The notes beneath the pieces were generated by a model. That model did not search any database and was not told where the DNA came from. It saw nothing but the letters and a program-made list of their open reading frames with translations. Shown piece by piece: positions 22,248 to 50,978 of a stretch of DNA of 52,895 bases. The position numbers and the translations under genes were made by a program. Origin of the DNA: Escherichia phage LF82-10; the sequence record PV660453, one strand, 5' to 3'. The first letter of the stretch is position 1. Each line of letters starts with the position of its first letter.

Positions 22248-22311
22248 AACAAAAGCGGTGATGTTTGGTATAATCACCGCTCAATCAAACGAACGAAAAG
22301 AGGCATAAGCA

Positions 22312-22971
22312 ATGCGAACTTCAGAAAGTATTATCAATGTTTCAAAGGCTCTCATCGAGGCGAAAAAGAAATTTGCCATCGCCAAAAAATCCGGTTTTAA
22401 CAAACACCTCAACTCCCATTATTCAAACCTGACGGATGTATTGGAGGCGATCGAGCCAGCGCTGAAAGAGCTTGATTTGATGGTTATTCAGTCAAACCTT
22501 GAAAGCACGACAGATAAGGTTATGCACATCGAAACGCTGATCCTTCATACATCCGGCGAATGGCTTGCATTCCAGTACAACATGCCTATAGAGAAAATCC
22601 AGGCTCAGGCATACGGCTCAACAACATCATACGGGCGACGTTATGCACTTTGTGCCGCGCTCAGCATCACTCAGAGCGACGACGACGCAGAGATCGCGAA
22701 ACGCACCGCGTCGGATTACAAAAAGCTGGTAGCAGATTGCAACGATATCGAGGCGCTTGGAACCATTTACCAAAGTGCCAAGCAATCACTCGGAGCGGCA
22801 GAGTGGAAAATTGCAGAGGAGCATTTGCGCAAACGCAAAGCAGAATTGCAAGCCGGAACGGCGCGAGGATTTAACCCACCTCAAAAGCAGGAAGCGCCAA
22901 AGAAACAAAATCAGGTTGAAGAGAAGCCACAACATCCGGTAGACTCTCAAAACATCGAAGACTTTAACTAA
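22312..22971 (+). CDS. single-strand annealing protein (Erf-like)
   Basis: 219 aa; N-terminal region resembles Erf family; between exonuclease and SSB. Confidence 0.55.
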   Translation: MRTSESIINVSKALIEAKKKFAIAKKSGFNKHLNSHYSNLTDVLEAIEPALKELDLMVIQSNLESTTDKVMHIETLILHTSGEWLAFQYNMPIEKIQAQAYGSTTSYGRRYALCAALSITQSDDDAEIAKRTASDYKKLVADCNDIEALGTIYQSAKQSLGAAEWKIAEEHLRKRKAELQAGTARGFNPPQKQEAPKKQNQVEEKPQHPVDSQNIEDFN

Positions 22972-23012
22972 ACCAAAGGGGGCGAAAGCCCCCTCACTAA
23001 CAGGAAATCAAA

Positions 23013-23498
23013 ATGCCGCACATCATCACAGGTGAGATCAAAAAAGCCCCGTACACCAAAGACGGAAGCAACAATAACGGGCGATGGAAAATGTACATTG
23101 TCGATCTGAGTGAGCGCATGAAAGTGCGCAACCCTGACACACAGGCCGATGAAGTTGTTTACACAAACTACAAGGCAACCTTCTTTGCAAAAGAAAACGT
23201 CATGCAGTGGTACGATGAAGCGTTCCAGGTTGGCAAGGTAATCAGCGTAACGTGTGACACGCTGCAAATCACCAGCCGAGATCACAACGGCAATACGTAT
23301 CTTACGGCTGAAATGATCCGGCCTCAACTGACCTTCAGCCAGCGAGAGGCTCAGCAGCAGGGATGGGGGCAACCACAGCAGCCGCAAGGCAATCAGCAAC
23401 AAAGCCAGCACAGACCACCACAGCAGCGACCACAGCAGCGACCACAGCAGCAACAGCCACAGCAGGGAAATCAGTTTGACGATGACATTCCATTCTGA
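23013..23498 (+). CDS. ssb: single-stranded DNA-binding protein
   Basis: 161 aa ending in the canonical acidic SSB tail DDDIPF, preceded by Gln/Pro-rich linker. Confidence 0.8.
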   Translation: MPHIITGEIKKAPYTKDGSNNNGRWKMYIVDLSERMKVRNPDTQADEVVYTNYKATFFAKENVMQWYDEAFQVGKVISVTCDTLQITSRDHNGNTYLTAEMIRPQLTFSQREAQQQGWGQPQQPQGNQQQSQHRPPQQRPQQRPQQQQPQQGNQFDDDIPF

Positions 23499-23503
23499 CG
23501 GGT

Positions 23504-23536
23504 AAAAATAAAGGAGCCTTTCGGCTCCTTTTTTAT
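23504..23536. terminator. bidirectional terminator between ssb and tail fibre gene
   Basis: AAAAATAAA-GGAGCC-TTTC-GGCTCC-TTTTTTATTT. Confidence 0.6.
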
Positions 23537-25922: not shown

Positions 25923-25937
25923 TAGCACGAATTGCTA
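25923..25937 (+). promoter_or_regulatory. TAGCA-box (TAGCACGAATTGCTA) over predicted start site of tail fibre transcript
   Basis: minus-strand -10 TATAAT at 25944-25949 lies upstream of box; operator-like position. Confidence 0.45.
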
Positions 25938-25965
25938 AAACGCATTATATCAGGCATTCAGGCAA

Positions 25966-25990: not shown

Positions 25991-25998
25991 TGTTCGAT

Positions 25999-26934: not shown

Positions 26935-26989
26935 CGCAAAAACTCCAGTATAAAAAAGGGTTGCACCGATTATGGCACAACCCGCGAGA

Positions 26990-27448
26990 TCATTGATTAG
27001 CTTTTCGTGCTTTCAGTGTTTTCCAGGATGGTTGCTCCGGCTTGGTTTCTAACTCTTCCTTTCTCACCACGCGCAGCATGTGACGCTTTTTGCATCGGAC
27101 TGTTAGCGGCTTGCCGTTGCCGTCGAATGACAGATCAGGGCGGCACCACGACGCGCGGAAACCTCCGCCATTTCGTTTATATGCGTTGTGCGCCAGTTGC
27201 GCGCCTCGCGCTGAAATCATGCCGCGTTGCCGCCACTCATAAACAACCTGAAGCGAAACGCGCAATTCTTTCGCCAGCTTTGCAGGTGAGCCGTAGAATT
27301 CAAGGATGGTATCTAATCTAGCCTTAAGCCCGGCCTTTACTTCGTCTCGTAAAACATAGTAACCTACTGGACGTTTTCGGCGCTTAGCGTCACTTCCGCG
27401 CTTCGTTCCATTGTTCCCATTAAGCGTGCGTTTATCTACGGTTTCCAT
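26990..27448 (-). CDS. Cro/CI-type HTH DNA-binding protein (candidate regulator)
   Basis: 152 aa, basic; HTH-like segment LAKELRVSLQVVYEWRQRGMIS; its leader contains a TAGCA-box. Confidence 0.55.
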   Translation of the reverse strand: METVDKRTLNGNNGTKRGSDAKRRKRPVGYYVLRDEVKAGLKARLDTILEFYGSPAKLAKELRVSLQVVYEWRQRGMISARGAQLAHNAYKRNGGGFRASWCRPDLSFDGNGKPLTVRCKKRHMLRVVRKEELETKPEQPSWKTLKARKANQ

Positions 27449-27461
27449 AATTATTCCTCAA

Positions 27462-27476
27462 TAGCATTTTTTGTTA
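27462..27476 (+). promoter_or_regulatory. TAGCA-box variant (TAGCATTTTTTGTTA) in divergent HTH-helicase control region
   Basis: -10 TGTATTAT 27496-27503 for helicase at +36; same box lies between minus-strand -10 (27499-27504) and the HTH gene SD. Confidence 0.55.
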
Positions 27477-27540
27477 AAACTGGATTGTTGAGGCGTGTAT
27501 TATATCAATCAAACGAACGAACATCAAAGGCATTAACACG

Positions 27541-29610: not shown

Positions 29611-30026
29611 TTACTGACAAGGGCGATTATCTTGAATATTACACCCCTGATAAGGGGTGTACCCTGAAGGAAGAGACTCACCAGGTTAACGGCGTTTCGT
29701 GGCTAAAGTACCACTACCCAAACCTGATGTTTTGGCACACGGTCAACGAGGGGCAGAAGCACATAAACACAGCCCTAAAAGATGAGCAAGCCGGGCTTAA
29801 GAAAGGTGTCAGCGACTTCGTATTTCTGATTGGTCATTTCGATCGGAAATATTGCTTTGGGGCTATTGAGCTGAAGCGCACCAACAAGAGCGGAAAGTAC
29901 AAGGCATCACCAGTCAGTAAGGAGCAGAAAGCTTTCCTTCTCGGTGTGCGTGAACGTGGGGGGTTCGCGGCTGTGGCTTACGGATTCGAGGAGTTGAAGA
30001 AAGCCGTTGAGGACATGATGAAATAG
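29607..30026 (+). CDS. VRR-NUC domain nuclease
   Basis: 139 aa; PD-(D/E)XK-like core (DFVFLIG...GAIELK) consistent with VRR-NUC; overlaps helicase stop. Confidence 0.55.
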   Translation: MITDKGDYLEYYTPDKGCTLKEETHQVNGVSWLKYHYPNLMFWHTVNEGQKHINTALKDEQAGLKKGVSDFVFLIGHFDRKYCFGAIELKRTNKSGKYKASPVSKEQKAFLLGVRERGGFAAVAYGFEELKKAVEDMMK

Positions 30027-30038
30027 CACTATTTGCTA
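30024..30038 (+). promoter_or_regulatory. TAGCA-box (TAGCACTATTTGCTA) upstream of dam
   Basis: TAG is stop of VRR-NUC gene; -10 CATAAT 30061-30066 after hairpin TGCCGG/CCGGCA. Confidence 0.55.
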
Positions 30039-30096
30039 AACCTGTGCCGGAACAATCCGGCATAATGCAACTACACAAACAAACAGGAATGAGATC

Positions 30097-30812: not shown

Positions 30813-31025
30813 ATGGCTACTGCATTCGGACTGTATAAGGCAAAAGTTATTCGCGCTCTGATGGCGGCTGGATTCAAGCACAACGCGGAGGAATTCGCTG
30901 ATTGCCTTGATATGAGCTTTGACGAGATCAAGCATCTTCACCACACGCAATGGGGAGAATCAATCAAGCGCGATCTCGAAGAGTACCGGAAAGAGAATCC
31001 GCACGAATTCGCAACACAGCACTAA
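30813..31025 (+). CDS. hypothetical protein
   Basis: 70 aa ORF, ATG immediately after dam. Confidence 0.4.
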   Translation: MATAFGLYKAKVIRALMAAGFKHNAEEFADCLDMSFDEIKHLHHTQWGESIKRDLEEYRKENPHEFATQH

Positions 31026-31031
31026 TTGCTA
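31017..31031 (+). promoter_or_regulatory. TAGCA-box variant (CAGCACTAATTGCTA)
   Basis: -10 TATTAT 31054-31059 after hairpin ACCCGG/CCGGGT. Confidence 0.5.
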
Positions 31032-31087
31032 AACGTACCCGGCGAAAGTCGGGTATTATTATTTTACACCAACAAGAGGAATCACCC

Positions 31088-31893: not shown

Positions 31894-33030
31894 ATGTCAC
31901 TGAAGAAAATCACCGACGAGCAGTTAAACGCCGAGCGAGAGTCGGGTAAAACTTACCGCCAGATCGCGGAAGAGTACGGAATGAACATACGCACCGTCGA
32001 GGCTCGCGGCGCACGCCTGGCTAAGAAAGGTTTCGGTCACGGTAACGGCGATGCATCGCGATTTGTTCCAGAAGGCTTCATGGTTAAGGGCACATCAACC
32101 ATGCACCGCGCGAACGGAGAGGTTATCGTTAGCTGGACGAAAACCAATCAGGATCATGAGAAGTTAGCCGCCATGCTTGAGCACGCGATCGAGGCGTTTT
32201 GCGTTGAGCTTCCACGCGCAGCCGCTACACCTTCCAACGTTGGTGAGGTGATGGAGAACCAGCTCGCGCTTTATCCTGTATTCGATCTGCATATCGGTGC
32301 AATGGCTCATAAGCATGAGTGCGGCGAGAACTACTCAACCGATATTGCCGAGAAGGTTTTGGGCGATTTCTTCAAGTACGCTGTGAACGTTGCGCCGAAG
32401 GCGAAGAAGGCGGTTGTGCTGGTTGGCGGTGACTACCTCCACTCTGACGGCCTGGACGCTGTAACACCCGCAAGCGGTCACGTTCTGGATCAGGACTCAC
32501 GTTACGCTAAGCTGGTTCACGTTGCCATTCGCTCACTCCGTCGCGGCGTTGCGCTTCTGCTTGATAAGCATGAAGAGATTGAGATCCAGATTATCGAAGG
32601 CAACCACGATCAGGCGGGTATGATTTGGCTACGCGCTGCAATGGCGGCATACTTCGAAGATGAGCCGCGCGTCACGGTTGACACATCGCCTATGATCCTT
32701 CACCGTACCAAGTGGGGCAAAACGCTGTTAGGCTACACTCACGGTCACACGATGAAGAAAGCAGAAACCCGCCTCCAGGCGCTGGCTACTGACTTCCGTT
32801 CTGAGTTCGGCACGAGTGAATTCGTTTATACTCACTCAGGGCATTGGCATCACCAGACGCTTACAGAGCACACCTTAGGCATTGACGAGGTTCACGGTCA
32901 GTTAGGTGCCAAAGATGCGTATGCGGCTCGCGGTGGATGGCGCTCATATCGCCAGGCGGCGGTAATTGTCTATGATAAAGAATTTGGCGAGGTAGGCCGA
33001 TTCGTTTATCGTCCTCAGATGAGCAAATAG
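31894..33030 (+). CDS. HTH domain fused to calcineurin-like metallophosphoesterase
   Basis: 378 aa; N-terminal HTH-like KTYRQIAEEYGMNIRTVEARGARL; phosphoesterase motifs DLH, GGDYLHSD, GNHD, HGH, GHWH in canonical order. Confidence 0.7.
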   Translation: MSLKKITDEQLNAERESGKTYRQIAEEYGMNIRTVEARGARLAKKGFGHGNGDASRFVPEGFMVKGTSTMHRANGEVIVSWTKTNQDHEKLAAMLEHAIEAFCVELPRAAATPSNVGEVMENQLALYPVFDLHIGAMAHKHECGENYSTDIAEKVLGDFFKYAVNVAPKAKKAVVLVGGDYLHSDGLDAVTPASGHVLDQDSRYAKLVHVAIRSLRRGVALLLDKHEEIEIQIIEGNHDQAGMIWLRAAMAAYFEDEPRVTVDTSPMILHRTKWGKTLLGYTHGHTMKKAETRLQALATDFRSEFGTSEFVYTHSGHWHHQTLTEHTLGIDEVHGQLGAKDAYAARGGWRSYRQAAVIVYDKEFGEVGRFVYRPQMSK

Positions 33031-33042
33031 CACTTTTTGTTA
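33028..33042 (+). promoter_or_regulatory. TAGCA-box (TAGCACTTTTTGTTA)
   Basis: TAG is stop of 31894..33030; -10 TATACT 33065-33070 after hairpin AGCCGA/TCGGCT. Confidence 0.55.
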
Positions 33043-33099
33043 AAAGCCGATCGCGTTGGTCGGCTATACTCATTTCATCAACTCAGAGGAGTAACGGAA

Positions 33100-36758: not shown

Positions 36759-36814
36759 GTTAAAAACTCCTTGTTTGGTTGCTCAATGATAGAGCAACCA
36801 ATGATAGTGCGTTT

Positions 36815-36829
36815 TGGCAAAAAGTGCTA
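36815..36829 (-). promoter_or_regulatory. TAGCA-box (TAGCACTTTTTGCCA) upstream of 528-aa gene
   Basis: -10 TATCAT at 36786-36791 (minus). Confidence 0.5.
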
Positions 36830-37250: not shown

Positions 37251-37307
37251 TTTTAGTTCCTCGTTGTTGGTGTGAATGAATAATAACAAAACCCGCCGAA
37301 GCGGGTT

Positions 37308-37322
37308 TAACAAAAAGTGCTA
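37308..37322 (-). promoter_or_regulatory. TAGCA-box (TAGCACTTTTTGTTA)
   Basis: TAG is stop of 37320..38012; followed by hairpin CCCGCTTCGGCGGG and -10 TATTAT 37280-37285 (minus). Confidence 0.55.
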
Positions 37323-38933: not shown

Positions 38934-38991
38934 CTTCATTTCCTTGTTTGTTGGTGTAACTGCATTATTGCAGATCACGCCGATTTAGTTT

Positions 38992-39006
38992 TAACAAAAA
39001 GTGCTA
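38992..39006 (-). promoter_or_regulatory. TAGCA-box (TAGCACTTTTTGTTA)
   Basis: TAG is stop of 39004..39351; weak -10 AATAAT at 38964-38969 (minus). Confidence 0.5.
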
Positions 39007-39807: not shown

Positions 39808-39866
39808 TTGCTTATCTCCGTTTCGTTTTAGTGGTTACATTATGCCGGGTTTCCGCCCGGCACGTT

Positions 39867-39881
39867 TAGCAATTAGTGCTA
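39867..39881 (-). promoter_or_regulatory. TAGCA-box (TAGCACTAATTGCTA)
   Basis: abuts stop of 39882..40088; -10 CATAAT 39839-39844 (minus) after hairpin. Confidence 0.55.
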
Positions 39882-40088: not shown

Positions 40089-40154
40089 TTTGCTATCCTT
40101 TTGTGTGCTTCGTTTCGATGGAGTAATAATAGCAAAAGCCAGATCGGGAGTTTT

Positions 40155-40169
40155 AGCAAAAAGTGCTAT
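40155..40169 (-). promoter_or_regulatory. TAGCA-box (TAGCACTTTTTGCTA)
   Basis: -10 TATTAT 40126-40131 (minus). Confidence 0.5.
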
Positions 40170-41514: not shown

Positions 41515-41574
41515 TGCTGTTTCCTCAGTTCGTTTCGTTGAGATAACTATAGCCGAAACATCCTGAGTGGTTTT

Positions 41575-41589
41575 AGCAAAAAGTGCTAT
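41575..41589 (-). promoter_or_regulatory. TAGCA-box (TAGCACTTTTTGCTA), first of leftward accessory operon
   Basis: -10 TATAGT 41546-41551 (minus). Confidence 0.55.
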
Positions 41590-41709: not shown

Positions 41710-41730
41710 GATGTGATGTGATGTGATGTG
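41710..41730 (+). repeat. (GATGT)4 microsatellite
   Basis: GATGTGATGTGATGTGATGTG. Confidence 0.8.
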
Positions 41731-42191: not shown

Positions 42192-42223
42192 GGCGGCTCA
42201 ACCAATCAGATGAGGTATCACCC

Positions 42224-42930: not shown

Positions 42931-42945
42931 ATGGAATAATTGGAA

Positions 42946-42960
42946 TAGCACGAACTGCTA
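42946..42960 (+). promoter_or_regulatory. TAGCA-box (TAGCACGAACTGCTA)
   Basis: preceded by GGAATA repeats; -10 CATAAT 42983-42988 inside palindrome GGGGCTATGCCATAATAGCCCC. Confidence 0.55.
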
Positions 42961-43019
42961 AAACACCAGATCGGGGCTATGCCATAATAGCCCTACACCA
43001 ACAAAACGAGGTTAGCACA

Positions 43020-43441: not shown

Positions 43442-43746
43442 TGATTTTGAATGACCGAGAGGAGCTACAGGAAGCCGTGAGACTGGCGCTAAAATCAGAC
43501 GTGCCATTTATCGAAGTTGTGCTTTGCGTGGCTGCCAGCCTCGATGTACGGCCCCGTGTGGCTGCTTTCATGGTTCACTCTAACACCTTCGATATGGCTG
43601 GCACATTCCAGGGTGATAAATTCCTTGAATTCTTGATGCAGCTAACCGATAAGTTCGAAGCCATGCATCCTGACCGGATAAGCGCCAGTGGGCAGATCCT
43701 GATCGAGGAGTTCACCAACTTTGTGATTCGCGGTACATGGCGATAG
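43438..43746 (+). CDS. hypothetical protein
   Basis: ATG 43438 overlaps upstream stop; 102 aa; stop TAG embedded in box 43744-43758. Confidence 0.4.
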   Translation: MMILNDREELQEAVRLALKSDVPFIEVVLCVAASLDVRPRVAAFMVHSNTFDMAGTFQGDKFLEFLMQLTDKFEAMHPDRISASGQILIEEFTNFVIRGTWR

Positions 43747-43758
43747 CACTTTTTGTTA
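43744..43758 (+). promoter_or_regulatory. TAGCA-box (TAGCACTTTTTGTTA)
   Basis: TAG is stop of upstream gene; -10 CATACT 43781-43786 after hairpin TGCCGG/CCGGCA. Confidence 0.55.
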
Positions 43759-43816
43759 AACGTGTGCCGGGCTAATCCGGCATACTGTCACCACACCAAC
43801 CAATCAAGAAGTCAAC

Positions 43817-44095
43817 ATGAAGACGTTAAAAGAGATTTTGGCAGAAATTGACGAGGCTGCGCTCAAGGATAATGACGACGAGGCCACAACAAGCAAGAAG
43901 ATCCTGACTTGCGGAGCCACTCACATTGCGCAAGATGCAGACGGCGCAGTATTCGCATTCAGGGGTAAGCCAACCGCCACGAAAATTGAGGATATGACGG
44001 AGTGGTTTAGCGGCGAAAAAGGTGAAGTGCTGTTATTCTGCGCAGACCTGGAAAAGCCAGAAGATTGGACGCAGTGCATTTGGGAGCTGCCATAA
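43817..44095 (+). CDS. hypothetical protein
   Basis: 92 aa. Confidence 0.4.
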   Translation: MKTLKEILAEIDEAALKDNDDEATTSKKILTCGATHIAQDADGAVFAFRGKPTATKIEDMTEWFSGEKGEVLLFCADLEKPEDWTQCIWELP

Positions 44096-44415
44096 TGAAA
44101 AAGTTTGTCGGATCGTGTTTGCTGGTTTCTGTCCTGGCGCTGGCGTTCATCGCTCTCGCAGGGTGTGACGACTCAACCCGCGTGCCTCGTGAGCAGCGTA
44201 GCAAGGTGCGGGTCACAACGGCTGAATCCGGGCGCGTGCAGGTGCGCAAGATCAGCGAATTCCGTGACGACCTGGCTTATGACAGCTATCGAGGCGTGTA
44301 CATCATCACGGACACTGAAACCGGGCAGGAGTTCATAGGCGTTAGCGGTGTTGGTATCAGTGCTATCGGGCAACACAATTGCGGCAAAAACTGCTGGAAG
44401 AAAGATGAGAGATAG
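44095..44415 (+). CDS. putative lipoprotein
   Basis: ATG overlaps upstream stop (TAATG); signal peptide with lipobox LAGC. Confidence 0.5.
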   Translation: MKKFVGSCLLVSVLALAFIALAGCDDSTRVPREQRSKVRVTTAESGRVQVRKISEFRDDLAYDSYRGVYIITDTETGQEFIGVSGVGISAIGQHNCGKNCWKKDER

Positions 44416-44427
44416 CACTTTTTGTTA
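44413..44427 (+). promoter_or_regulatory. TAGCA-box (TAGCACTTTTTGTTA)
   Basis: TAG is stop of lipoprotein gene; -10 CATAAT 44450-44455. Confidence 0.55.
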
Positions 44428-44484
44428 AAACTGCCCGGAGCGATTCGGGCATAATGATTTCACACCAAACGAGAGGAAGTGAAA

Positions 44485-45099
44485 ATGTTTAAATTAGTTC
44501 GCGGCGTAACAACTCCAAATGACATTCTTATCCATGTTGCATCCGGCGCACGCTATGACGTTCCTGACAACACCAAACAGGTTGCAGTAGATCAGGATGG
44601 AGAAATATACGCCTATGAATCCGGCATGGCTAAAGTAGAGCACGGGCACACCGGATGGAGTGATAACGGATATGATGGTTTTGTCAAGTGCATCGGTAAG
44701 ATTCCGAGCGATCAGGAAAACATGCCGAAAGGTGTATTCCCTGGATGGCTGGACTCATTGACAAGCATCGACGCGCTTAAGCTTTCGCCGGAATACGCCC
44801 CGCTAGGCAGTAAGAAAAAGATTGAGATCGCAACACCCGTTCGCATTGGCGGCTCACAACTCCGCGCTCGTGTCACGGAATATCTTGACCGCAAGATGAA
44901 GGATAACGTTGTCGGATCTGTTCGGGCGCGCCACTTCCTTTCTGACATTCGAAGCGAGGGCTTCACGTTCGAGAACTACCGCACAGCCGATCTCGTCCTG
45001 GCTCTGGTTACTATCGGGTGCGATCTCAAGCTGGCTCGTGACTATGCAGCATTCCGCGCCATTGATGATGCGGTTCACTTTGTGCGAGGTGAGGCATGA
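44485..45099 (+). CDS. hypothetical protein
   Basis: 204 aa from ATG 44485, SD GAGGAAG. Confidence 0.45.
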   Translation: MFKLVRGVTTPNDILIHVASGARYDVPDNTKQVAVDQDGEIYAYESGMAKVEHGHTGWSDNGYDGFVKCIGKIPSDQENMPKGVFPGWLDSLTSIDALKLSPEYAPLGSKKKIEIATPVRIGGSQLRARVTEYLDRKMKDNVVGSVRARHFLSDIRSEGFTFENYRTADLVLALVTIGCDLKLARDYAAFRAIDDAVHFVRGEA

Positions 45100-45227
45100 A
45101 CCTAACAACTCTTGAGGCGATCATTGTCGCTACCGCTGGCTTACTCGTTGCTGGCATCATCATTGAGCAAATTGCCTATACCTGGTTGCAGATTGTTAAG
45201 CGCCGGAAGGAGAAAGGTGATGATTAA
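45096..45227 (+). CDS. small hydrophobic peptide (43 aa)
   Basis: ATGA coupling to upstream gene; one TM segment followed by KRRKEK. Confidence 0.3.
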   Translation: MNLTTLEAIIVATAGLLVAGIIIEQIAYTWLQIVKRRKEKGDD

Positions 45228-45324
45228 TGCAATCGGCGCGGCATGTCTTCTTGCTTCCGTCACTGTGGTTGCGGTTGGCGCTGTTTGGCTAATGGCAAAA
45301 ATATTGCGTGAGATTGACGAATAG
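45220..45324 (+). CDS. small hydrophobic peptide (34 aa)
   Basis: ATG overlapping upstream stop; one TM segment; stop TAG embedded in box 45322-45336; alternative is a 70-aa TTG-initiated ORF 45112..45324. Confidence 0.25.
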   Translation: MINAIGAACLLASVTVVAVGAVWLMAKILREIDE

Positions 45325-45336
45325 CACGAATTGCTA
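45322..45336 (+). promoter_or_regulatory. TAGCA-box (TAGCACGAATTGCTA)
   Basis: -10 TATCAT 45359-45364 inside inverted repeat CGGCATG/CATGCCG. Confidence 0.55.
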
Positions 45337-45396
45337 AAACGGCATGGCTCCTGAGTGGTATCATGCCGTTACACCAAACAAACAGGAGTCACCCAA

Positions 45397-45762
45397 ATGA
45401 AAGTTAAATGCATTAGTTCAGACGTTTTGCTTGATGGTTACTACACCCCAGGTAGAGTCTACCGATTAAGGCGAGAAAGGGGCAAAAGCTATAGAACCGT
45501 TAAATCAAACAGAGGCGTTGATCTTGGTGTTATCCACGACCCATTAAAAAGAGGTCGGTTTTTCGTTGCTGGATTTGAACGTTGTGTGTTTGATTCGGCT
45601 CCGCACCGATTCGTGAAGCGCAACCAAAGCGCCGCGCTGGGGCAGATTGAGATCGACTATACGCGATGCAAGCGCAGCATTCGCAATCAGGCTCGCAACA
45701 TCGCAAAAGAGCACTTCTCGTGCGGCAAGCTTGAGAAGATTGCGCGAGGCTATAAGCGATAG
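45397..45762 (+). CDS. hypothetical basic protein (MKVKCI, MKxKC-family)
   Basis: 121 aa from ATG 45397, SD CAGGAG. Confidence 0.45.
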   Translation: MKVKCISSDVLLDGYYTPGRVYRLRRERGKSYRTVKSNRGVDLGVIHDPLKRGRFFVAGFERCVFDSAPHRFVKRNQSAALGQIEIDYTRCKRSIRNQARNIAKEHFSCGKLEKIARGYKR

Positions 45763-45774
45763 CACTTTTTGCTA
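45760..45774 (+). promoter_or_regulatory. TAGCA-box (TAGCACTTTTTGCTA)
   Basis: -10 TATAGT 45797-45802 inside inverted repeat AAGGGCA/TGCCCTT. Confidence 0.55.
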
Positions 45775-45842
45775 AAACTTCCGCAAGGGCATTTGATATA
45801 GTGCCCTTATTGAAGCAGAGCAAACCAATCAGAGGATTCAAC

Positions 45843-46052
45843 ATGGCAATACCAACATTTACCCGTAAGCAGTTTACCGAGTTCTTCCGCCTGGTTAACA
45901 TGAGCGGCAGCCCGCACCAGATGGATCGCATCACTAGCCGCCTTGAAATGCCCAAGTTCGTTGAGGCAGTCGGGCGCAAGAATTGCAATAGCATGTGGGC
46001 GCTGATTAATGGCGGCGTTACACCATCAACCTTAGACCCGGAGATCAAATAA
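45843..46052 (+). CDS. hypothetical protein
   Basis: 69 aa, SD AGAGGA. Confidence 0.4.
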   Translation: MAIPTFTRKQFTEFFRLVNMSGSPHQMDRITSRLEMPKFVEAVGRKNCNSMWALINGGVTPSTLDPEIK

Positions 46053-46417
46053 TGCGCATTCGTTTATTAAACCCGTCAATCTATACCGGAATGGAGCTGA
46101 GCAAATACAACTCAGATCCTATGCACGACGAAAGCAACTACCCGGTTATTGTTGAAGCGTCAGAGAAGGATCACAACGGCTTTGAATTCACAGGCCGGGC
46201 GCATGTAAGCTACAAGGAGCTTGATCGCGTATTCCCATACGGATTCGAGCGCGACAAGTGCGAACCTGGGAAGGGCATTGGCTGGTGGAATAACCCGGTA
46301 AAACGAGACGCTAAAACGCCTCAAATCTCATGGGAGCCAGTATCACCGTTTGACTACTGGAACAAGCTGAAATCATCCCGCCCGGTTGGTGACGTGGTTC
46401 CGGCGGGGTACTTATGA
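46052..46417 (+). CDS. hypothetical protein
   Basis: 121 aa; TAATG coupling. Confidence 0.4.
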   Translation: MRIRLLNPSIYTGMELSKYNSDPMHDESNYPVIVEASEKDHNGFEFTGRAHVSYKELDRVFPYGFERDKCEPGKGIGWWNNPVKRDAKTPQISWEPVSPFDYWNKLKSSRPVGDVVPAGYL

Positions 46418-46665
46418 GAAAATTAACCCGCGATGAGGAGCGTTTTAAATCGTGCCTCAAGAAGTCAAAGCAGAAGGCTATCATCATGGATCGCAACTCA
46501 TCCGGTCAAGCCTTCTGGCATTTCCCGGACGTTGAGCAAACGGGATGGCACCCGGACACTATACGAGATCTCATGCGTGATGATCTTGTTGAGTTCGGGT
46601 TAATGGATAGTGGGCACCCTAACGGACAGCCGCGATACAGTAACGCAAAGTGGATAGGGGGTTGA
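46414..46665 (+). CDS. hypothetical protein
   Basis: 83 aa; ATGA coupling. Confidence 0.4.
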   Translation: MRKLTRDEERFKSCLKKSKQKAIIMDRNSSGQAFWHFPDVEQTGWHPDTIRDLMRDDLVEFGLMDSGHPNGQPRYSNAKWIGG

Positions 46666-46666
46666 T

Positions 46667-46855
46667 ATGCAGATCTACAAATCGCCAGGCGGAGCAAGAT
46701 ATGTCGTTGTTGATGGCGTTGTTTACTGCAAGCCAGCAGATGGAAGCATGGTTTACAGGCCGCGCATGACGGTTGAGCGATATCTTGAGCTTATCGCTGG
46801 CGGTCTTCTGACATTCCATTGCGTTATTCGCCCGGTAATGTTCAAAAAGCACTAA
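46667..46855 (+). CDS. hypothetical protein
   Basis: 62 aa. Confidence 0.35.
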   Translation: MQIYKSPGGARYVVVDGVVYCKPADGSMVYRPRMTVERYLELIAGGLLTFHCVIRPVMFKKH

Positions 46856-46861
46856 TTGCTA
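46847..46861 (+). promoter_or_regulatory. TAGCA-box variant (AAGCACTAATTGCTA)
   Basis: -10 TATAGT 46884-46889 inside inverted repeat AAGAGGCA/TGCCTCTT. Confidence 0.5.
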
Positions 46862-46927
46862 AAACTTGCTAAGAGGCATTTGTTATAGTGCCTCTTGTCG
46901 AGTTAACACAAATACAGAGGATTTGAA

Positions 46928-47632
46928 ATGAGCATTCAACGCTACTACCCTGAAGTGAAGTACACAGTGCGGGAAACTCGCGTTAATATGGCTCCACACG
47001 AGCGCGGAAGCTATGTGACCTATGAATCACACATCGAAGAATTGCGCCGCGTACAGGCCGAATTAGACGCCTTAAAAGCGATGCAAAAAAGCGATTTTTT
47101 CTATCACCTAAAGCCAGTCTTCGAAAAGGCGCTTGAAGAGGCGATTGCTATCGTCGTGAAGCAAGCCAGCCAATCAGTTTTCAAGGTTGACGCTGAGGCG
47201 CTAATTGCTGCTGACGTTGGCCGTTGGATGGAGAAGCACATGAACGAGCGCGCCGGATTTGCAACTGGCAGCCTGTTTGTGGGTGATGTAGAGGTTGATT
47301 TCGACAACAACAAAGTCAAGATCACCGATGCGCTAATCAAGAGCGGCGTTGTGACTGAAAGCGAATTATTCTCTTTCCCTAAGGCACGAAAGAACATTGT
47401 CGTTTGCACAAGCGCCGATGAAGGTAGCGGTTTCACTATTGGAAAGAAATACGCATTCGATCGCAATGAAGGGAACATTATCCGAATCTGCCAGGATGAT
47501 TTTGTTTCAGATCTCGCAGAGGATGATTGCTGGATTGCAAGCCGCCGCCGAAACCTGGTAAGCGGTGAATTCAGATACTTCTTACAGGGGCATACAGAAG
47601 GCAAGCGCGCATCTTTCGAGATCGTTGAATAG
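46928..47632 (+). CDS. hypothetical protein
   Basis: 234 aa; contains internal CT...GKKY motif of the MKxKC family; stop TAG embedded in box. Confidence 0.45.
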   Translation: MSIQRYYPEVKYTVRETRVNMAPHERGSYVTYESHIEELRRVQAELDALKAMQKSDFFYHLKPVFEKALEEAIAIVVKQASQSVFKVDAEALIAADVGRWMEKHMNERAGFATGSLFVGDVEVDFDNNKVKITDALIKSGVVTESELFSFPKARKNIVVCTSADEGSGFTIGKKYAFDRNEGNIIRICQDDFVSDLAEDDCWIASRRRNLVSGEFRYFLQGHTEGKRASFEIVE

Positions 47633-47644
47633 CACGAATTGTTA
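47630..47644 (+). promoter_or_regulatory. TAGCA-box (TAGCACGAATTGTTA)
   Basis: -10 TATCAT 47667-47672 inside inverted repeat GGCATGTG/CATGTGCC. Confidence 0.55.
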
Positions 47645-47702
47645 AACGGGCATGTGTTCCGACTGGTATCATGTGCCAACACAAACAAGCAAGGGGCTTT
47701 AA

Positions 47703-47870
47703 ATGTTCGAAGAAAAGAAACACAGGCCGGAACAAGCTTACTCAAGGGTATCACGCACCGTTAAAGAGCGTAGGCGCTGGGTTAAGTATTTCATGAATCA
47801 AGGCCACACCAGATCGGTTGCGATTGGCCTGGCTAAGTGGGCAACAAACAACTACAACGGGAAAAACTGA
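47703..47870 (+). CDS. hypothetical basic small protein
   Basis: 55 aa; stop overlaps next start; below ORF-track cut-off. Confidence 0.3.
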   Translation: MFEEKKHRPEQAYSRVSRTVKERRRWVKYFMNQGHTRSVAIGLAKWATNNYNGKN

Positions 47871-48502
47871 TGAACTTTCAAATGTACACTATGATCAAGC
47901 ATCACTTACTTACTCATCCAGATCAGCCAGTCTACATCTTCGACTATGACGGCACGCTTTCGGATGGCTCTCACCGACTGGACAAGTTGCCAACAAAAGA
48001 TTTGCACCTCACCGAAAGCTGGGAAGAGTTCAATCGCCTTGCTTCATTCGATGAGCCGATCGAAACAACCATTCAGGTGATGAATTCACTTTATAAGGCT
48101 GGCGCTTTCGTTATCGTGTTAACCGGGCGCGCCGATAGCGTTGTTGAAGAGTCAACACAATGGCTGCATGATGCTGGGGCGAAATATACAGTGATGGTGA
48201 TGCGTGGGCGTGACGACAATCGCAAGGACACGATCATCAAGGAGGAATTCTTGCGCTACATCGGACTTGAGCGAATTACAGCGGCGTGGGATGATAGCCC
48301 AAAAGTGATCGAGCATTTCCGATCGCTGGGCATCACAACCTACCAGGTTTGTGATTATGGCGATAAGACTCACGCGCATCTACAGTCACACGGCGTGAAA
48401 GATGCTGGCGGAGAGTGTGAGCATATTTGGGAGCGTCACAGTATTGGTGACGATTATTATGAATGCTGTGTTTCATGCGGCAGATCAAGAGGCATTAAGT
48501 AA
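47870..48502 (+). CDS. HAD-family phosphatase (T4 Pnk 3'-phosphatase-domain-like)
   Basis: 210 aa; HAD motif I FDYDGTL; later segments (VLTGRAD, RGRDDNRKDTIIKEEF, AWDDSPKVIEHFRSLGITTYQV) resemble the T4 polynucleotide kinase phosphatase domain from memory. Confidence 0.6.
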   Translation: MNFQMYTMIKHHLLTHPDQPVYIFDYDGTLSDGSHRLDKLPTKDLHLTESWEEFNRLASFDEPIETTIQVMNSLYKAGAFVIVLTGRADSVVEESTQWLHDAGAKYTVMVMRGRDDNRKDTIIKEEFLRYIGLERITAAWDDSPKVIEHFRSLGITTYQVCDYGDKTHAHLQSHGVKDAGGECEHIWERHSIGDDYYECCVSCGRSRGIK

Positions 48503-49110
48503 TGGCAACTATCATCATTCTGAATGCGCCGCCGCGCGCCGGGAAAGACACGATCGCGAAAATCATCGACGAGCAATACGGCTTGCCAGTTGTGAGCTTC
48601 AAAACTCCGATGTTCAACATTGCTCGCGGCATCTTGGGCGAAGCGGATTTTAAAGAGTTCATGGCGGTTTACGAAACAGACCGCAAGGACACACAGCCGT
48701 TAAGTATTCTGCATGGCAGCACTTGCCGCGAGTTTATGATCTGGATTAGCGAATCCGTGATTAAGCCTCATTTCGGCAAGAAGCATTTCGGCTGGCTTAT
48801 GGCTGATTTGCTCAGCGAAATGGAGGATGATGTTGATCTCACAATTTGCAGCGATGGCGGGTTCCCGGATGAGGTAGAGGCGTTGATTGACTTCGGGCAC
48901 CGTGTCAAGCTGGTTCGTATGCACCGTGAAGGCTTCGACTTCTCGAAAGATAGCCGTGACTACATCTACCTTTCCGAAGAGTACAAGAGCAAGCCTGGTG
49001 TTGTTGAGTTCGATCTGACATTGCAGGACGGTTGCCCTAATCTGGCTGCTGAGACTATCGCGTCATTGTTCATTGCCCATCATAAACCAGATAACGAGAT
49101 CCCTTGGTAA
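48502..49110 (+). CDS. P-loop kinase (T4 gp1 dNMP-kinase-like)
   Basis: 202 aa; Walker A LNAPPRAGKDT and later ICSDGGFPDEVEA resemble T4 dNMP kinase; start overlaps phosphatase stop (TAATG). Confidence 0.55.
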   Translation: MATIIILNAPPRAGKDTIAKIIDEQYGLPVVSFKTPMFNIARGILGEADFKEFMAVYETDRKDTQPLSILHGSTCREFMIWISESVIKPHFGKKHFGWLMADLLSEMEDDVDLTICSDGGFPDEVEALIDFGHRVKLVRMHREGFDFSKDSRDYIYLSEEYKSKPGVVEFDLTLQDGCPNLAAETIASLFIAHHKPDNEIPW

Positions 49111-49111
49111 A

Positions 49112-49126
49112 TAGCACTTTTTGTTA
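49112..49126 (+). promoter_or_regulatory. TAGCA-box (TAGCACTTTTTGTTA) fused to terminator-like hairpin
   Basis: 41 bp identical (inverted) to 37282-37322; hairpin CCCGCTTCGGCGGG 49129-49142 then TTTTGTTATTC. Confidence 0.5.
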
Positions 49127-49183
49127 AACCCGCTTCGGCGGGTTTTGTTATTCTTGCTTTAACGAAACGAAATGGAGTGAAGA

Positions 49184-49414
49184 ATGAAAACTTTATCAGA
49201 GCTGAAGTCGATCGCGGCTGACTTGCAGGAGCGAATGAAGCCACTAAACCACAAGCTGGAAAACTCGCGCATTACTATAGCCTCAAGAATGTCTATCGAG
49301 TGCTCACTGCGCGAACTTAAAATCATGTGGCATGATGCCATGTGCGACGTTCACGCTCACCCTGAGTACGAAGGTGAGTTTAAATTCCAGAAAGAAAACA
49401 ACCCATACCGATAA
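49184..49414 (+). CDS. hypothetical protein
   Basis: 76 aa. Confidence 0.4.
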   Translation: MKTLSELKSIAADLQERMKPLNHKLENSRITIASRMSIECSLRELKIMWHDAMCDVHAHPEYEGEFKFQKENNPYR

Positions 49415-49424
49415 GGATTCAATA

Positions 49425-49721
49425 ATGAACACTATCAAAAAGTTGACTCCAAACATGGCAACCAAAATCAAGTACGAGATCCCGGAGGATGGCACATTCT
49501 TAGCCGTCTGGACTTATCGCGAGATCCCGTACTCCGGTACTTATCAATGGCGAAACGGCGAGCTTGCCGTGTGGGTTGATGGCGTTGGCTGGGAAATTGC
49601 CGGGCATGGAGCGGCGGAGGACTATTACGATTTCAACTGCCTCGTGTCTATGGCTAGTGGTGAGAATTACGGCGGTGCTTGTCACTTTGTTGCGGTTGTA
49701 GTGGTTGAGGAAACAGCGTGA
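49425..49721 (+). CDS. hypothetical protein
   Basis: 98 aa from in-frame ATG (MNTIKK...). Confidence 0.4.
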   Translation: MNTIKKLTPNMATKIKYEIPEDGTFLAVWTYREIPYSGTYQWRNGELAVWVDGVGWEIAGHGAAEDYYDFNCLVSMASGENYGGACHFVAVVVVEETA

Positions 49722-49891
49722 AGACTTTTATTATTTTCCTAGTTGGCGCTTGCATGGTTAGCGTTTCTGATAACTTCACAGTTTTCGTTGGCGCTGCGAT
49801 GGTGTCGTGGGCTTACTACCGATGCGGAAAGGCTGACGGAATAGCGGAAGGTAAACGCCAGGCGCTGGCATCCGGCACTAAGTTAAAGTAG
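49718..49891 (+). CDS. small membrane protein (GTG start)
   Basis: 57 aa, two hydrophobic segments; GTGA overlap with upstream stop; TAG embedded in box 49889-49903. Confidence 0.25.
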   Translation: MKTFIIFLVGACMVSVSDNFTVFVGAAMVSWAYYRCGKADGIAEGKRQALASGTKLK

Positions 49892-49903
49892 CACGATTTG
49901 TTA
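49889..49903 (+). promoter_or_regulatory. TAGCA-box (TAGCACGATTTGTTA)
   Basis: -10 TGGTATAAT 49923-49931 inside inverted repeat GGGGAT/ATCCCC. Confidence 0.55.
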
Positions 49904-49961
49904 AAAGGGGATTCGTCCTGACTGGTATAATCCCCACATCAACCAAGCAGAGGAAACGATC

Positions 49962-50414
49962 ATGAAATTAGTTTGCACATCATCACGCGTCAAAAGCTTC
50001 ACCGTTGGAAAGAAATATGAAAGCCGCACAGTCGAGCATTACGGAATTGTTACGCACGAGGTGGACGGAGACACCGCTTGCGGCTGGGTGATTAACGATG
50101 GCCTGAGCATTTGCGGAGCTGATCACTCAAACCCAATGGCAACTTTCCGCAAGGATAAGAGCATGATGAAGATGCTTGTTCGCGCATTCGTATTGGTTGC
50201 AAAGGCTCGCGGTTGGGGTGATAGCAAGAGCGGGGCTTACAAATCCTGGAGCGGCACACCTTACAAAAACTCCAGAGATTGGGCGCGAGCTATTGCCTTC
50301 AGCTACGATGTTGGGAGTGTTGCGCGCGAGATAATTGATGAAGATCCTAACGTGAAACTCATCGACCAGGAAGCGGTAAACCTGTTTGCCGAAAACGAGA
50401 TCGACAACTGGTAA
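49962..50414 (+). CDS. hypothetical protein (MKLVCT, MKxKC-family)
   Basis: 150 aa; SD GAGGAA. Confidence 0.45.
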   Translation: MKLVCTSSRVKSFTVGKKYESRTVEHYGIVTHEVDGDTACGWVINDGLSICGADHSNPMATFRKDKSMMKMLVRAFVLVAKARGWGDSKSGAYKSWSGTPYKNSRDWARAIAFSYDVGSVAREIIDEDPNVKLIDQEAVNLFAENEIDNW

Positions 50415-50476
50415 TTTGCGCAAGGCCGTTTATAATAGCGGCCTTACTCAGACAAACCAATCAGAAGGAAATCACC

Positions 50477-50905
50477 ATGAAATTACGTTGCACATTCCTT
50501 GAGCCAGCTTTCGCAAAAGCTCTGGCTGAGTTCTACACCATCGGCAAAACTTACGCCGCATCCATCAAGCCGGGATCAAAGGTTGGCGCTGTGCTGGTGG
50601 AGTCAAACGAAGGCAATGAAGGCGATCAGCTTGCAGCAGTTCCGAGCCGCTCAGGGTTCGAGGTTCAAATTAAGAACCAAATTCCGATCGCAAAGTTCGA
50701 GGTTGTTGGCAAGCGTGCGGTGAAGCTTGTTAAGACTGAGAAGCGCGTAACGCTGAAACTTGATGGCGTGGGGAAATCAGATAAGCGCCGATTCCGCCGT
50801 GTTTGCCGCCAGTATCGAAAGTTGAAATTCATCAACCCTGGATTCTATTATGATCTGGAATCCGATCGCCACATGGCTAAACTTGCGCGACATCACCGCC
50901 GATAG
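50477..50905 (+). CDS. hypothetical basic protein (MKLRCT, MKxKC-family)
   Basis: 142 aa; SD AGAAGGAA. Confidence 0.45.
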   Translation: MKLRCTFLEPAFAKALAEFYTIGKTYAASIKPGSKVGAVLVESNEGNEGDQLAAVPSRSGFEVQIKNQIPIAKFEVVGKRAVKLVKTEKRVTLKLDGVGKSDKRRFRRVCRQYRKLKFINPGFYYDLESDRHMAKLARHHRR

Positions 50906-50917
50906 CACTTTTTGCTA
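50903..50917 (+). promoter_or_regulatory. TAGCA-box (TAGCACTTTTTGCTA)
   Basis: -10 TATAGT 50940-50945 inside inverted repeat CGGGGTT/AACCCCATCG. Confidence 0.55.
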
Positions 50918-50978
50918 AAACTCGAAATCGGGGTTGCGATATAGTAACCCCATCGAAACGCAACGGAGCAAACGAAAA

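Follow-up and report, generated by a model that had tools for sequence, protein, structure and literature searches.

The window analysed here is the 52,895-nucleotide (nt) sequence of Escherichia phage LF82-10 (PV660453), and all cassette coordinates refer to this whole stretch. Its gene order is that of a T1-like siphovirus (Drexlerviridae): the plus strand carries the terminase to tail genes up to about 19.3 kb, and beyond this point DNA-metabolism genes and many small genes lie on both strands. In this regard, we specifically focused on a compact intergenic cassette that recurs in 23 copies, each with a conserved box, a predicted sigma70-type -10 element and, at most copies, an inverted repeat whose stem sequence changes from site to site. 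This pairing exceeds that of shuffled sequences, is kept through compensatory changes in related phages and favours the sense strand. Megablast searches with positions 42000-50000 and 21000-45000 returned Escherichia phages LF82-11, -12, -19 and -40 at 100% identity; the nearest distinct relatives were Vilniusvirus KLB19, HazelMika and NBD2, with about 75% identity over roughly half of the region, and T1 was more distant.

The box motif AGCAC-N5-GYTAAA occurs in 28 window copies at no more than one mismatch, compared with 1.85 expected, and 23 of the 28 are followed 19-21 nt downstream by a -10-like hexamer and then by an A/C-rich leader, a ribosome-binding site (RBS) and an ATG. For comparison, we assembled 279 cassettes (206 unique) from about 30 related genomes and contigs, namely KLB19, NBD2, HazelMika and T1, which are complete or nearly so, and 24 T1-like IMG/VR contigs, which were chosen by a pattern with box, loop motif and -10 only, the stem positions being left free. 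The box, AAATAGCAC-N3-TTGYTAAAA, spans -52 to -31; a 20-nt spacer separates it from a -10 element that has G at -14, and a CA start follows. The distance from box to -10 is 20 nt in 261 of the 279 cassettes. A logo of 227 cassettes revealed a palindromic box core, TAGCA-N5-TGCTA, centred at -42, together with G-14 (95%), T-15 (61%), C-1 (72%), A+1 (88%), the -10 hexamer and a U-poor, A/C-rich leader; G is enriched at -23 to -21 and C at -4 to -1. The stop codon of the upstream gene often lies inside or beside the box, and the RBS and ATG follow about 25-30 nt after +1.

Since G-14, T-15 and the CA start had played no part in cassette selection, they serve as independent marks of a sigma70 extended -10 promoter. 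By sequence, the cassettes show the features of such a promoter, TGn with a TATAAT-like hexamer and a start 6-8 nt downstream, with the full TGn present in about half of them. No -35 hexamer was found at 16-18 nt from the cassette -10, and the box stands in its place; a scan of the early region for canonical sigma70 -35/-10 promoters gave matches at chance level and missed the cassettes. We infer that the cassette is a promoter for the host sigma70 RNA polymerase, probably assisted by a putative box-binding protein. When candidate early proteins were searched against Pfam and PHROGs, a 152-amino-acid (aa) helix-turn-helix (HTH) 'transcriptional regulator' was the only DNA-binding candidate, and nothing in these results ties it to the box.

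An earlier note on this DNA had listed eight inverted repeats between boxes and genes. All eight are present in the sequence, with four of the positions needing a shift of one or two bases and the remainder standing: CGGCATG/CATGCCG ends at 45368 and not at 45367, AAGAGGCA/TGCCTCTT lies at 46871-46896, and the two copies of TGCCGG/CCGGCA lie at 30045-30062 and 43765-43782. The repeat GGCATGTG/CATGTGCC (47649-47677) does pair, through two G.T(U) wobbles, but it is not a strict inverted repeat and its antisense does not fold. The note had also placed a repeat at every box; a clear hairpin is found at 19 of the 23 window cassettes, under half of which the note had covered, and is missing at 19716 (-), 27463 (+), 40167 (-) and 41587 (-), where each cassette is cited by the first base of its box.

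To quantify the pairing, we folded 35-37 nt of each window cassette, a stretch that starts where the box ends and reaches 10 nt beyond the -10, with dinucleotide shuffles as controls. Eighteen of the 23 window cassettes were more stable than their controls at p<=0.05, with a mean of -11.4 versus -5.5 kcal/mol (z -2.8). The sense strands of the 206 unique cassettes gave -11.37 versus -5.85 kcal/mol in shuffles, with a mean z of -2.64 and 68% at p<=0.05. Chimeras in which the spacer came from a different cassette than the -10 and discriminator folded less stably (-6.97 kcal/mol) than the native cassettes (-11.44 kcal/mol). Furthermore, the spacer contains the exact complement of a 5-mer from -8 to -1 in 84 of 191 cassettes, compared with 16.3+/-3.4 when spacers were swapped, and the 84 cassettes span 27 different discriminator hexamers. 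Since native folding far exceeds that of chimeras and exact complements number 84 versus 16, the pairing is specific to each cassette. An Rfam scan of the window gave no family match for the cassettes.

The division of hairpins into those that end before the -10 and those that enclose it, which the earlier note had drawn, proved real. Class A hairpins lie within the spacer and end at or in the first bases of the -10; class B hairpins enclose the -10 and place their 3' arm in the discriminator. By hand assignment, the window holds eight class A hairpins (30025, 31018, 33029, 43745, 44414 and 49113 on the plus strand; 37321 and 39880 on the minus strand) and eleven of class B (22234, 42947, 45323, 45761, 46848, 47631, 49890 and 50904 on the plus strand; 27011, 36828 and 39005 on the minus strand). 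The full TGn is found in 78 of 127 class B and 7 of 41 class A cassettes of the comparison set, and the class A hexamer often begins with C. In the chimera control, class B gave -13.83 versus -6.51 kcal/mol. The 3' ends of the helices cluster in two places, -12/-10 and -3/-1, and 54 of 156 helices stop exactly at -1. Given this pile-up, the structure belongs to the tail of the upstream transcript and stays outside the downstream leader.

Table 1 Box-bearing features of the window. Folding energies are in kcal/mol; hairpins are given with their class (A or B).
Feature	Span	Strand	Box	-10 element	Hairpin	Pairing, energy and remarks
Cassette before Erf-like recombinase gene	22234..22281	+	22234-22249	TATAAT 22269-22274, in loop	B, 22254-22281	AGCGGTGAT/ATCACCGCT; -14.2, 0/300 shuffles as stable; predicted +1 ~22281
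Cassette before helicase gene	27463..27510	+	27463-27478 (AGCAT variant)	TATTAT 27498-27503	None significant	-2.9, z +0.4 to +0.8; no upstream co-directional gene; divergent from regulator gene
Cassette before dam gene	30025..30073	+	30025-30040	CATAAT 30061-30066	A, 30043-30064	TGTGCCGGA-ACAA-TCCGGCATA; -14.5 as RNA; T1 orthologue annotated as rho-independent terminator
Cassette	31018..31066	+	31018-31033	TATTAT 31054-31059, then T-rich run	A, 31035-31056	GAAA tetraloop, one G.U pair; -14.7, antisense -8.6
Cassette	33029..33077	+	33029-33044	TATACT 33065-33070	A, 33045-33065	GCCGATC/GGTCGGC; -12.5, antisense -7.9
Cassette	42947..42995	+	42947-42962	CATAAT 42983-42988, across loop and 3' arm	B, 42973-42994	GGGGCTAT/ATAGCCCT; -13.0
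Cassette	43745..43793	+	43745-43760	CATACT 43781-43786	A, 43762-43785	GTGTGCCGG/CCGGCATAC; -16.6
Cassette	44414..44462	+	44414-44429	CATAAT 44450-44455	A, 44432-44451	GCGA tetraloop; -13.2
Cassette	45323..45371	+	45323-45338	Extended, TGGTATCAT, in loop and 3' arm	B, 45339-45369	ACGGCATGG/TCATGCCGT, closing pair G.U; -16.0
Cassette	45761..45809	+	45761-45776	TATAGT 45797-45802	B, 45785-45808	AAGGGCA/TGCCCTT, ends at -1; -12.9; outer helix CTTC/GAAG to +4..+7
Cassette	46848..46901	+	46848-46863	TATAGT 46884-46889	B, core 46870-46897, outer pairs to 46901	AAGAGGCA/TGCCTCTT; -15.1 to -20.1 by length folded
Cassette	47631..47679	+	47631-47646	Extended, TGGTATCAT	B, 47649-47677	GGCATGTG/CATGTGCC, pairs only with two G.U wobbles; RNA sense -12.0 (p ~0.07-0.10), antisense -6.0; as DNA antisense does not fold
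Cassette	49113..49161	+	49113-49128	TATTCT 49149-49154, inside T-rich tail	A, 49129-49142	CCCGC-UUCG-GCGGG then TTTTGTTATTCTT; terminator-like
Cassette	49890..49938	+	49890-49905	Extended, TGGTATAAT 49923-49931	B, 49907-49935	GGGGAT/ATCCCC
Cassette	50904..50956	+	50904-50919	TATAGT 50940-50945	B, core 50930-50951, outer pairs 50922-50956	GGGGTTGC/GTAACCCC, ends at -1; -14.9 to -16.6
Cassette	19668..19716	-	19701-19716	TATAAT 19675-19680	Weak, 4 base pairs (bp) only	-4.0, p 0.46; KLB19/HazelMika orthologous site GCCCC/GGGGC at -12.0
Cassette between regulator and primase genes	26958..27011	-	26996-27011	CATAAT 26969-26974, in loop	B, 26958-26983	GGGTTGTGCC/GGTGCAACCC, then TTTTTT; -12.6 to -17.3; canonical hairpin-plus-U6 terminator shape
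Cassette before 528-aa helicase gene	36775..36828	-	36813-36828	TATCAT 36786-36791, in loop	B, 36775-36801	TTGGTTGCTC/GAGCAACCAA; -14.3 to -15.8
Cassette	37273..37321	-	37306-37321	TATTAT 37280-37285	A, 37292-37305	CCCGC-UUCG-GCGGG then TTTTGTTATTATT; terminator-like
Cassette	38953..39005	-	38990-39005	AATAAT 38964-38969	B, 38953-38981	Core CTGCA-AUAA-UGCAG with extensions; -8.8 to -12.5
Cassette	39832..39880	-	39865-39880	CATAAT 39839-39844	A, 39842-39863	GTGCCGGG/CCCGGCAT; -15.2
Cassette	40119..40167	-	40152-40167	TATTAT 40126-40131	None significant	-3.3, p 0.13
First cassette of leftward early gene block	41539..41587	-	41572-41587	TATAGT 41546-41551	None	-1.0, z +1.3 to +1.5; no upstream co-directional gene
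Sigma70-type promoter before major capsid gene, not a cassette	6020..6047	+		TTGACC, 16 nt, TATTAT		Just after terminator
Related feature upstream of tail-fibre gene	25924..25952	-	25924-25939 (inverted)	TGATATAAT, 3 nt before the box		Box followed by RBS

The earlier note had read the differences between stems as compensatory change under selection on structure. This held in part: the hairpin is kept while stems change, and true compensatory steps occur, but much of the difference between sites comes from reassortment of whole cassettes. Among related phages, orthologous and paralogous cassettes keep the hairpin with a changed stem sequence, as the note had expected. Four steps are seen between cassettes that are otherwise identical, namely GGGGAT/ATCCCC (window, T1) versus GGGCAT/ATGCCC (KLB19, NBD2), CCCGC/GCGGG versus CCCTC/GAGGG, for which the intermediate CCCTC/GCGGG was also found, GGGGTT/AACCCC versus GGGGTA/TACCCC, and AAGGGCA/TGCCCTT versus AAGGCCA/TGGCCTT.

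For a statistical view, we used two alignments. The largest register class (48 gapless sequences, set A1) had been chosen by pairing, so its percentage of paired positions is no test; both-sided changes are nevertheless present in 6 of its 7 pairs, doubly changed cells number 85 versus 26 in shuffles, and the covariation score is 0.727 versus 0.269, with slid partners reaching at most 0.22. Set A3 comprises 28 sequences chosen by loop and -10 pattern alone; it is less biased but also more demanding as a test, since its members use several registers. Here, 76.8% of cells are paired versus 66.3%, doubly changed cells number 15 versus 3.9, and the covariation score is 0.263 versus 0.126, with 0 of 500 shuffles as high. 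Helices selected on discriminator pairing alone extend into the -10 hexamer: in one register, positions -15 and -8 form C-G in 15 cases and T-A in 4, while positions -7 and -16 form G.T in 14 and A-T in 5.

When cassettes were grouped by homology of the downstream protein, the stem before the Erf-like gene was AGCGGTGAT/ATCACCGCT in the window and GAGGCTCAT/ATGAGCCTC in KLB19, NBD2 and HazelMika. The window, T1 and a TLS-type contig each have a 10-11-bp stem at the same place before the 528-aa helicase, and the three stems are unrelated. Even the class can switch, since the hairpin before the gene at 44479 is class A in the window and class B in the relatives KLB19 and HazelMika.

Which molecule carries the structure can be judged from strand asymmetry. 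The energy difference between sense and antisense strands was -1.76 kcal/mol versus +0.36 in shuffles, with a gap of 2.68 kcal/mol in class B, and G.U pairs account for 74 of the 685 pairs in the minimum-energy folds of the sense strand versus 34 of 655 in those of the antisense strand. Of the 16 four-base loops in class A, 15 read as GNRA or UNCG on the sense strand and none does so on the antisense strand. The hairpins also persisted as local structure in a 111-nt RNA context at all 19 window sites tested. The predicted +1 lies seven bases after the -10, so that a cassette's own RNA would be without its own hairpin and only transcripts from upstream would carry it. We further compared six unique operon-first cassettes, which have no co-directional gene before them and were hand-picked as the helicase cassette and the first leftward early cassette of several phages, and obtained a mean of -4.9 kcal/mol (z -0.5), compared with -11.6 (z -2.7) for the rest. 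This set replaced the classifier 'upstream open frame of at least 60 codons', which gave -12.3 versus -7.8 but misassigned short genes. Selection therefore looks to act on the sense-strand RNA. Of the two accounts that the earlier note had offered, hairpins in read-through RNA fit better than cruciform DNA, owing to the strand asymmetry, the sense-only tetraloops and the operon-first cassettes mostly without hairpin, while the processing part of that account is unlikely as far as RNase III is concerned.

We hold with moderate confidence that these are composite promoter/attenuator cassettes, in which the hairpin acts on transcripts from upstream. The cassette fills the gap between one gene's stop codon and the next gene's start codon. 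Its inverted repeat would be written into the variable promoter parts, namely the spacer, the discriminator and positions -9 and -8 of the -10 element, and would become an RNA stem-loop in transcripts begun upstream and reading into the cassette. A class A hairpin, with a G+C-rich stem, often a GNRA or UNCG tetraloop and the T-rich -10 as its tail, may form a leaky and sometimes strong intrinsic terminator. A class B hairpin, with the -10 inside it, its end at -1 or -3 and mostly no U-tract behind it, might exert weaker attenuation of read-through or provide a protective 3'-end barrier. Overall, a gene's own cassette would be the main determinant of its expression; the cassettes are also portable and reassort with genes.

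The terminator character of class A is consistent with this model. Class A hairpins average 3.7 T in the next 8 nt, so that most of them are likely leaky, and the T1 RefSeq record annotates orthologues of several of them as rho-independent terminators (38973-39001, 39998-40024 and 41980-42007). The late region of the window holds canonical terminators followed by canonical -35/-10 promoters, an uncompressed version of the same terminator-then-promoter logic. Because class A cassettes are mostly without TG and their hexamer often starts with C, the sequences suggest that class A may stop transcription more strongly but restart it more weakly than class B.

Several observations weigh against the composite cassette. 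Under a strict terminator rule (a G+C-rich hairpin followed directly by a U-rich tract, with at least 5 T in 8 nt), only two cassette hairpins passed in the scanned ranges, at 37308 on the minus strand (37292-37305) and at 49126 on the plus strand (49129-49142), both of which are CCCGC-UUCG-GCGGG followed by TTTTGTTATTAT; the hairpin at 26958-26983, outside those ranges, has a U6 tail and satisfies the rule by eye. With a class B mean of 1.4 T in the next 8 nt, classical intrinsic termination is not expected for most of that class, and about 18% of cassettes are without a convincing hairpin. Two of the six operon-first cassettes, those before the helicase in T1 and KLB19, do fold. Internal non-Watson-Crick appositions (G.T 7 versus A.C 4) give an underpowered and non-significant count, so the asymmetry claim rests on energies, G.U counts and tetraloops. 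In set A3, partners slid by -1 score 0.225, near the 0.263 of the real register, the signal being modest because members use several registers and poly-G/poly-C stems slip. Since the cassettes share descent and recombine, the p-values overstate independence. Finally, the box-binding factor is putative, and literature searches for transcript mapping or promoter descriptions in T1-like phages returned nothing beyond the paper on phage TLS discussed below.

The main alternative is that the hairpins in RNA are 3'-end barriers or processing landmarks that stabilise the upstream cistron, not terminators or attenuators: read-through RNA would be cut in the leader or ended downstream, and 3' exonucleases would stop at the stem. 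It draws on the same evidence for selection on sense-strand RNA, and it suits class B stems, which have no U-tract (1.4 T in 8 nt), as well as the 54 of 156 stems ending at -1, where a processed upstream 3' end would abut the downstream mRNA unit. However, U-poor, A/C-rich RNA is a poor substrate for RNase E, and the leader is of this kind; RNase III-type processing was rejected because the stems, at 6-15 bp, are not long enough for this enzyme; and class A as well as some class B sites are shaped like terminators. We consider this alternative unlikely in its pure form; it is compatible with attenuation, and the two are not exclusive.

A variant of the composite cassette, which we regard as very unlikely, would make the class B hairpins a terminator/reset device that needs no U-tract, with the enclosed extended -10 as a sigma70-dependent pause signal. 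Polymerases from upstream that still carry sigma70 would halt a few nt past +1, where a stem ending at -1 or -3 would be placed to invade the RNA-DNA hybrid. The same sequence would thus have two roles, that of a promoter -10 during initiation and that of the pausing half of a terminator during elongation. The sense-strand hairpin could also present the -10 as a single strand to sigma70.

Cassettes move between genes. Near-identical copies (at least 34 of 38 nt) of the 45761, 49890 and 50904 cassettes were found 13, 16 and 3 times before non-homologous genes and only 1, 2 and 0 times before homologous ones. The 49890 cassette, about 75 nt from box to ATG, is close to 90% identical to its T1 counterpart (88% by megablast), whereas the flanking DNA does not align and the downstream proteins are without similarity. 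Cassettes thus bound gene replacement, with the same cassette before non-homologous genes and different cassettes before homologous genes. Within the window, 37282-37321 on the minus strand and 49113-49152 on the plus strand share an identical stretch of about 40 nt (the box plus CCCGCTTCGGCGGGTTTTGTTATT), which indicates recent copying or gene conversion between cassettes in one genome.

These copies before non-homologous genes, the different cassettes before homologous ones, and a crossover mapped within the loop of one cassette of the type called PeSL in phage RB49 (PMC2839356) would favour the idea that the stem-loops are mainly recombination sites for modular gene shuffling, as proposed for PeSLs, and that pairing is kept for that purpose. 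Recombination needs shared sequence, however, and this is supplied by the box and the leader, not by the variable stems; strand asymmetry and RNA tetraloops would also be left unexplained. Shuffling is better viewed as a consequence of the conserved cassette ends, and we give this explanation little credence.

A role in DNA would have cruciform or hairpin extrusion in supercoiled phage DNA alter the box-to-(-10) geometry, as the earlier note had proposed, or expose the -10 as a single strand, and so tune promoter strength. Arms that flank or abut the -10 at fixed promoter coordinates speak for it, as do many perfect Watson-Crick stems that fold equally as DNA on both strands (for example 49906-49941 and 30041-30076). 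But the sense strand is favoured in energy, opposite to the composition trend, RNA-type tetraloops occur on the sense strand only, and the antisense of 47647-47682 cannot fold, so the symmetric pairing and short loop of a cruciform or N4-type hairpin were not found. Widely spaced arms and weak DNA hairpins make extrusion costly, and here class B arms lie about 6-17 unpaired nt apart, with DNA energies of -4.5 to -8.6 kcal/mol. Moreover, the hairpin moves and even changes class at orthologous genes, which argues against a precise geometric role, and operon-first cassettes tend to be without a hairpin, which a promoter-intrinsic role would not predict. Cruciform action is accordingly disfavoured, and we rate it as highly improbable. 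Least credible of all is that promoter function favours G in the spacer and, separately, C in the discriminator, with pairing as a by-product: the logo shows G at -23 to -21 and C at -4 to -1, and shuffled partners pair in 66-72% of cells, but native arms beat swapped arms (class B -13.8 versus -6.5 kcal/mol; 84 versus 16 exact complements), double-sided changes exceed those of shuffles, and class A hairpins lie wholly within the spacer.

Box copies also occur outside the cassettes. In the canonical promoter before the major capsid gene, the spacer is an inverted box copy (6027-6042, minus strand), and T1 has the same arrangement at 15062-15091 (TTGACG, CTTTAACAAAAAGTGC, TATTAT); this inverted box looks like an operator in a late promoter. 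The feature upstream of the tail-fibre gene lies downstream of the UUCG terminator of the primase gene, and its inverted box would cover the late-gene start site. At the syntenic position, KLB19, NBD2 and T1 keep an inverted box, on the plus strand, and after it a hairpin of terminator-like form. Such copies suggest that the box may be a protein-binding site that works in either orientation.

As for the box itself, C or T at -37 is the sole common variation in its arms, and either would keep a G-C or G.U pair; the box folds into its own 5-bp hairpin in most 111-nt RNA folds, and its arms show no covariation. A sigma54 promoter (TGGCAC-N5-TTGCW; GG and GC 11 nt apart, -24/-12) was also considered for the box and rejected, since TAGCAC-N3-TTGC has AG for GG and its spacing is 2 nt short. 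The leaders from +1 to +20 are A/C-rich and nearly free of U and G (for example ACACCAACAAAC and ATCGAAACGAA), belong to a few conserved types common to several genera, and may be unstructured, nuclease-resistant translation leaders.

The gene of the 152-aa HTH regulator (26990-27448, minus strand), whose product has only weak Cro/HTH Pfam matches and belongs to phrog_2856 in PHROGs, has its own extended -10 (TGATATAAT), which overlaps back-to-back with the -10 of the helicase cassette. The 5' untranslated region of the regulator spans the box at 27463-27478 (window 27449-27540), a layout that would allow autoregulation if the regulator binds the box. Between the divergent leftward and rightward early blocks, about 700 nt (41515-42223) are without a long open reading frame, and the first rightward gene (42224-42721, DUF7174) has no box and is preceded by a canonical-looking TTGACT, 17 nt, CATTAT at 42163-42191. 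The only Rfam match in the window at gathering score is a tRNA gene (52298-52382, plus strand, 44.9 bits), and NBD2 and HazelMika annotate tRNA-Ser at the corresponding place.

Canonical promoters are scarce in T1-like genomes, and the cassettes predict 23 transcription start sites in this phage. A variable promoter part that doubles as a selected RNA stem-loop means that DNA and RNA codes overlap in the same 40 nt. The arrangement provides a testable model of T1-like early/middle transcription as many short insulated units, and it offers compact self-insulating expression parts for phage engineering.

Part of this unit had been described before. A 21-nt intergenic direct repeat, aaATAGCACnnnTTGnTAAAA, was reported in phage TLS in 18-21 copies about 76 nt upstream of start codons, and it also occurs in T1, Rtp and Rogue1; only three sigma70-like promoters were found in TLS (PMC11447400). 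The authors leave the function of the repeat as an open question and suggest a stoperator, an enhancer site or an UP element (PMC11447400). The repeat is evidently the same box, with the consensus aaATAGCACnnnTTGnTAAAA, an intergenic position, co-orientation with transcription and a distance of about 76 nt from the ATG. The TLS paper treats the repeat alone, and its passages on transcription make no mention of a -10 with G-14 at a fixed 20 nt after the repeat, of a CA start or of a variable hairpin between them; the repeat is now placed at -52 to -31 of a rigid promoter architecture, which bears on the question raised there. The T1 annotation includes class A terminators, but the class B hairpins enclosing the -10 are unannotated, and neither the overlap of terminator and promoter in a 50-nt unit nor the covariation is described. 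We did not find a hairpin-bearing promoter cassette described for T1-like phages in the searchable literature. What was already known is thus the box as a published repeat, the class A hairpins as T1 terminators and PeSLs as a close precedent; what is new, as far as that literature goes, is the full promoter architecture, the class B hairpins with covariation into the -10, and the connection to the open question stated in the TLS paper.

Among other systems, T4 middle promoters, and the PmSLs of phage nt-1 that add a stem-loop, likewise combine a -10 with a phage-specific upstream box that replaces the -35 (PMC4122927). The MotA box (TGCTT) is centred near -30, whereas the box here is palindromic and centred at -42. 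Among seven small window proteins scanned with Pfam and PHROGs, none matched MotA or AsiA, and the likeness is one of architecture only. A genome has one or two lambda-type nut sites, which act as RNA with N and Nus factors and have a specific GNRA-like boxB loop; they share with the cassette a conserved linear box followed by a hairpin, but the cassette recurs 23 times here, always with a -10 at a set distance. The hairpin-form early promoters of the phage N4 virion RNA polymerase have 5-7-bp stems and 3-nt loops and use a phage polymerase with single-stranded DNA-binding protein (SSB). They also combine an inverted repeat in a promoter with conserved flanks and a variable stem. In the present case, the loops measure 4-15 nt, the promoter elements are of sigma70 type and the asymmetry points to RNA.

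The closest relatives in design are the PeSL cassettes of the T4-type phages phi1 and RB49, which comprise an AT-rich region, a -35, a -10 and a stem-loop that is often poly-G/poly-C with G-T pairs and lies mostly between -35 and -10 or over the -10 (Arbiol et al. 2010; PMC2839356). One PeSL stem-loop lowered lacZ expression to an extent similar to rrnB T1, complete cassettes had strong promoter activity, and the cassettes mediate modular gene shuffling (PMC2839356). PeSLs were later found in further T4-like phages, together with Mot-box variants (Comeau et al. 2014; PMC4122927). Both systems join a host sigma70-type promoter to a stem-loop of variable position, in many copies among small early genes of unknown function, with stems often poly-G/poly-C including G-T pairs and with cassettes and genes that reassort; the intergenic layout (23 copies) and a stem-loop in or overlapping the promoter are likewise found here. 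They differ in host virus, a T4-type myovirus there and a Drexlerviridae siphovirus here, and in evidence, terminator and promoter activity having been measured with reporters there and being predicted from sequence here. The T1-like cassette, in turn, has no -35 but a 21-nt palindromic box at -42 and a G-14/extended -10 at a rigid 20-nt spacing. Since the -35 was looked for and not found, we file the T1-like cassettes as working like PeSLs and not as strict members. This extends the PeSL idea to an unrelated siphovirus family and suggests that the design is general, or has arisen by convergence, in virulent phages rich in small accessory genes.

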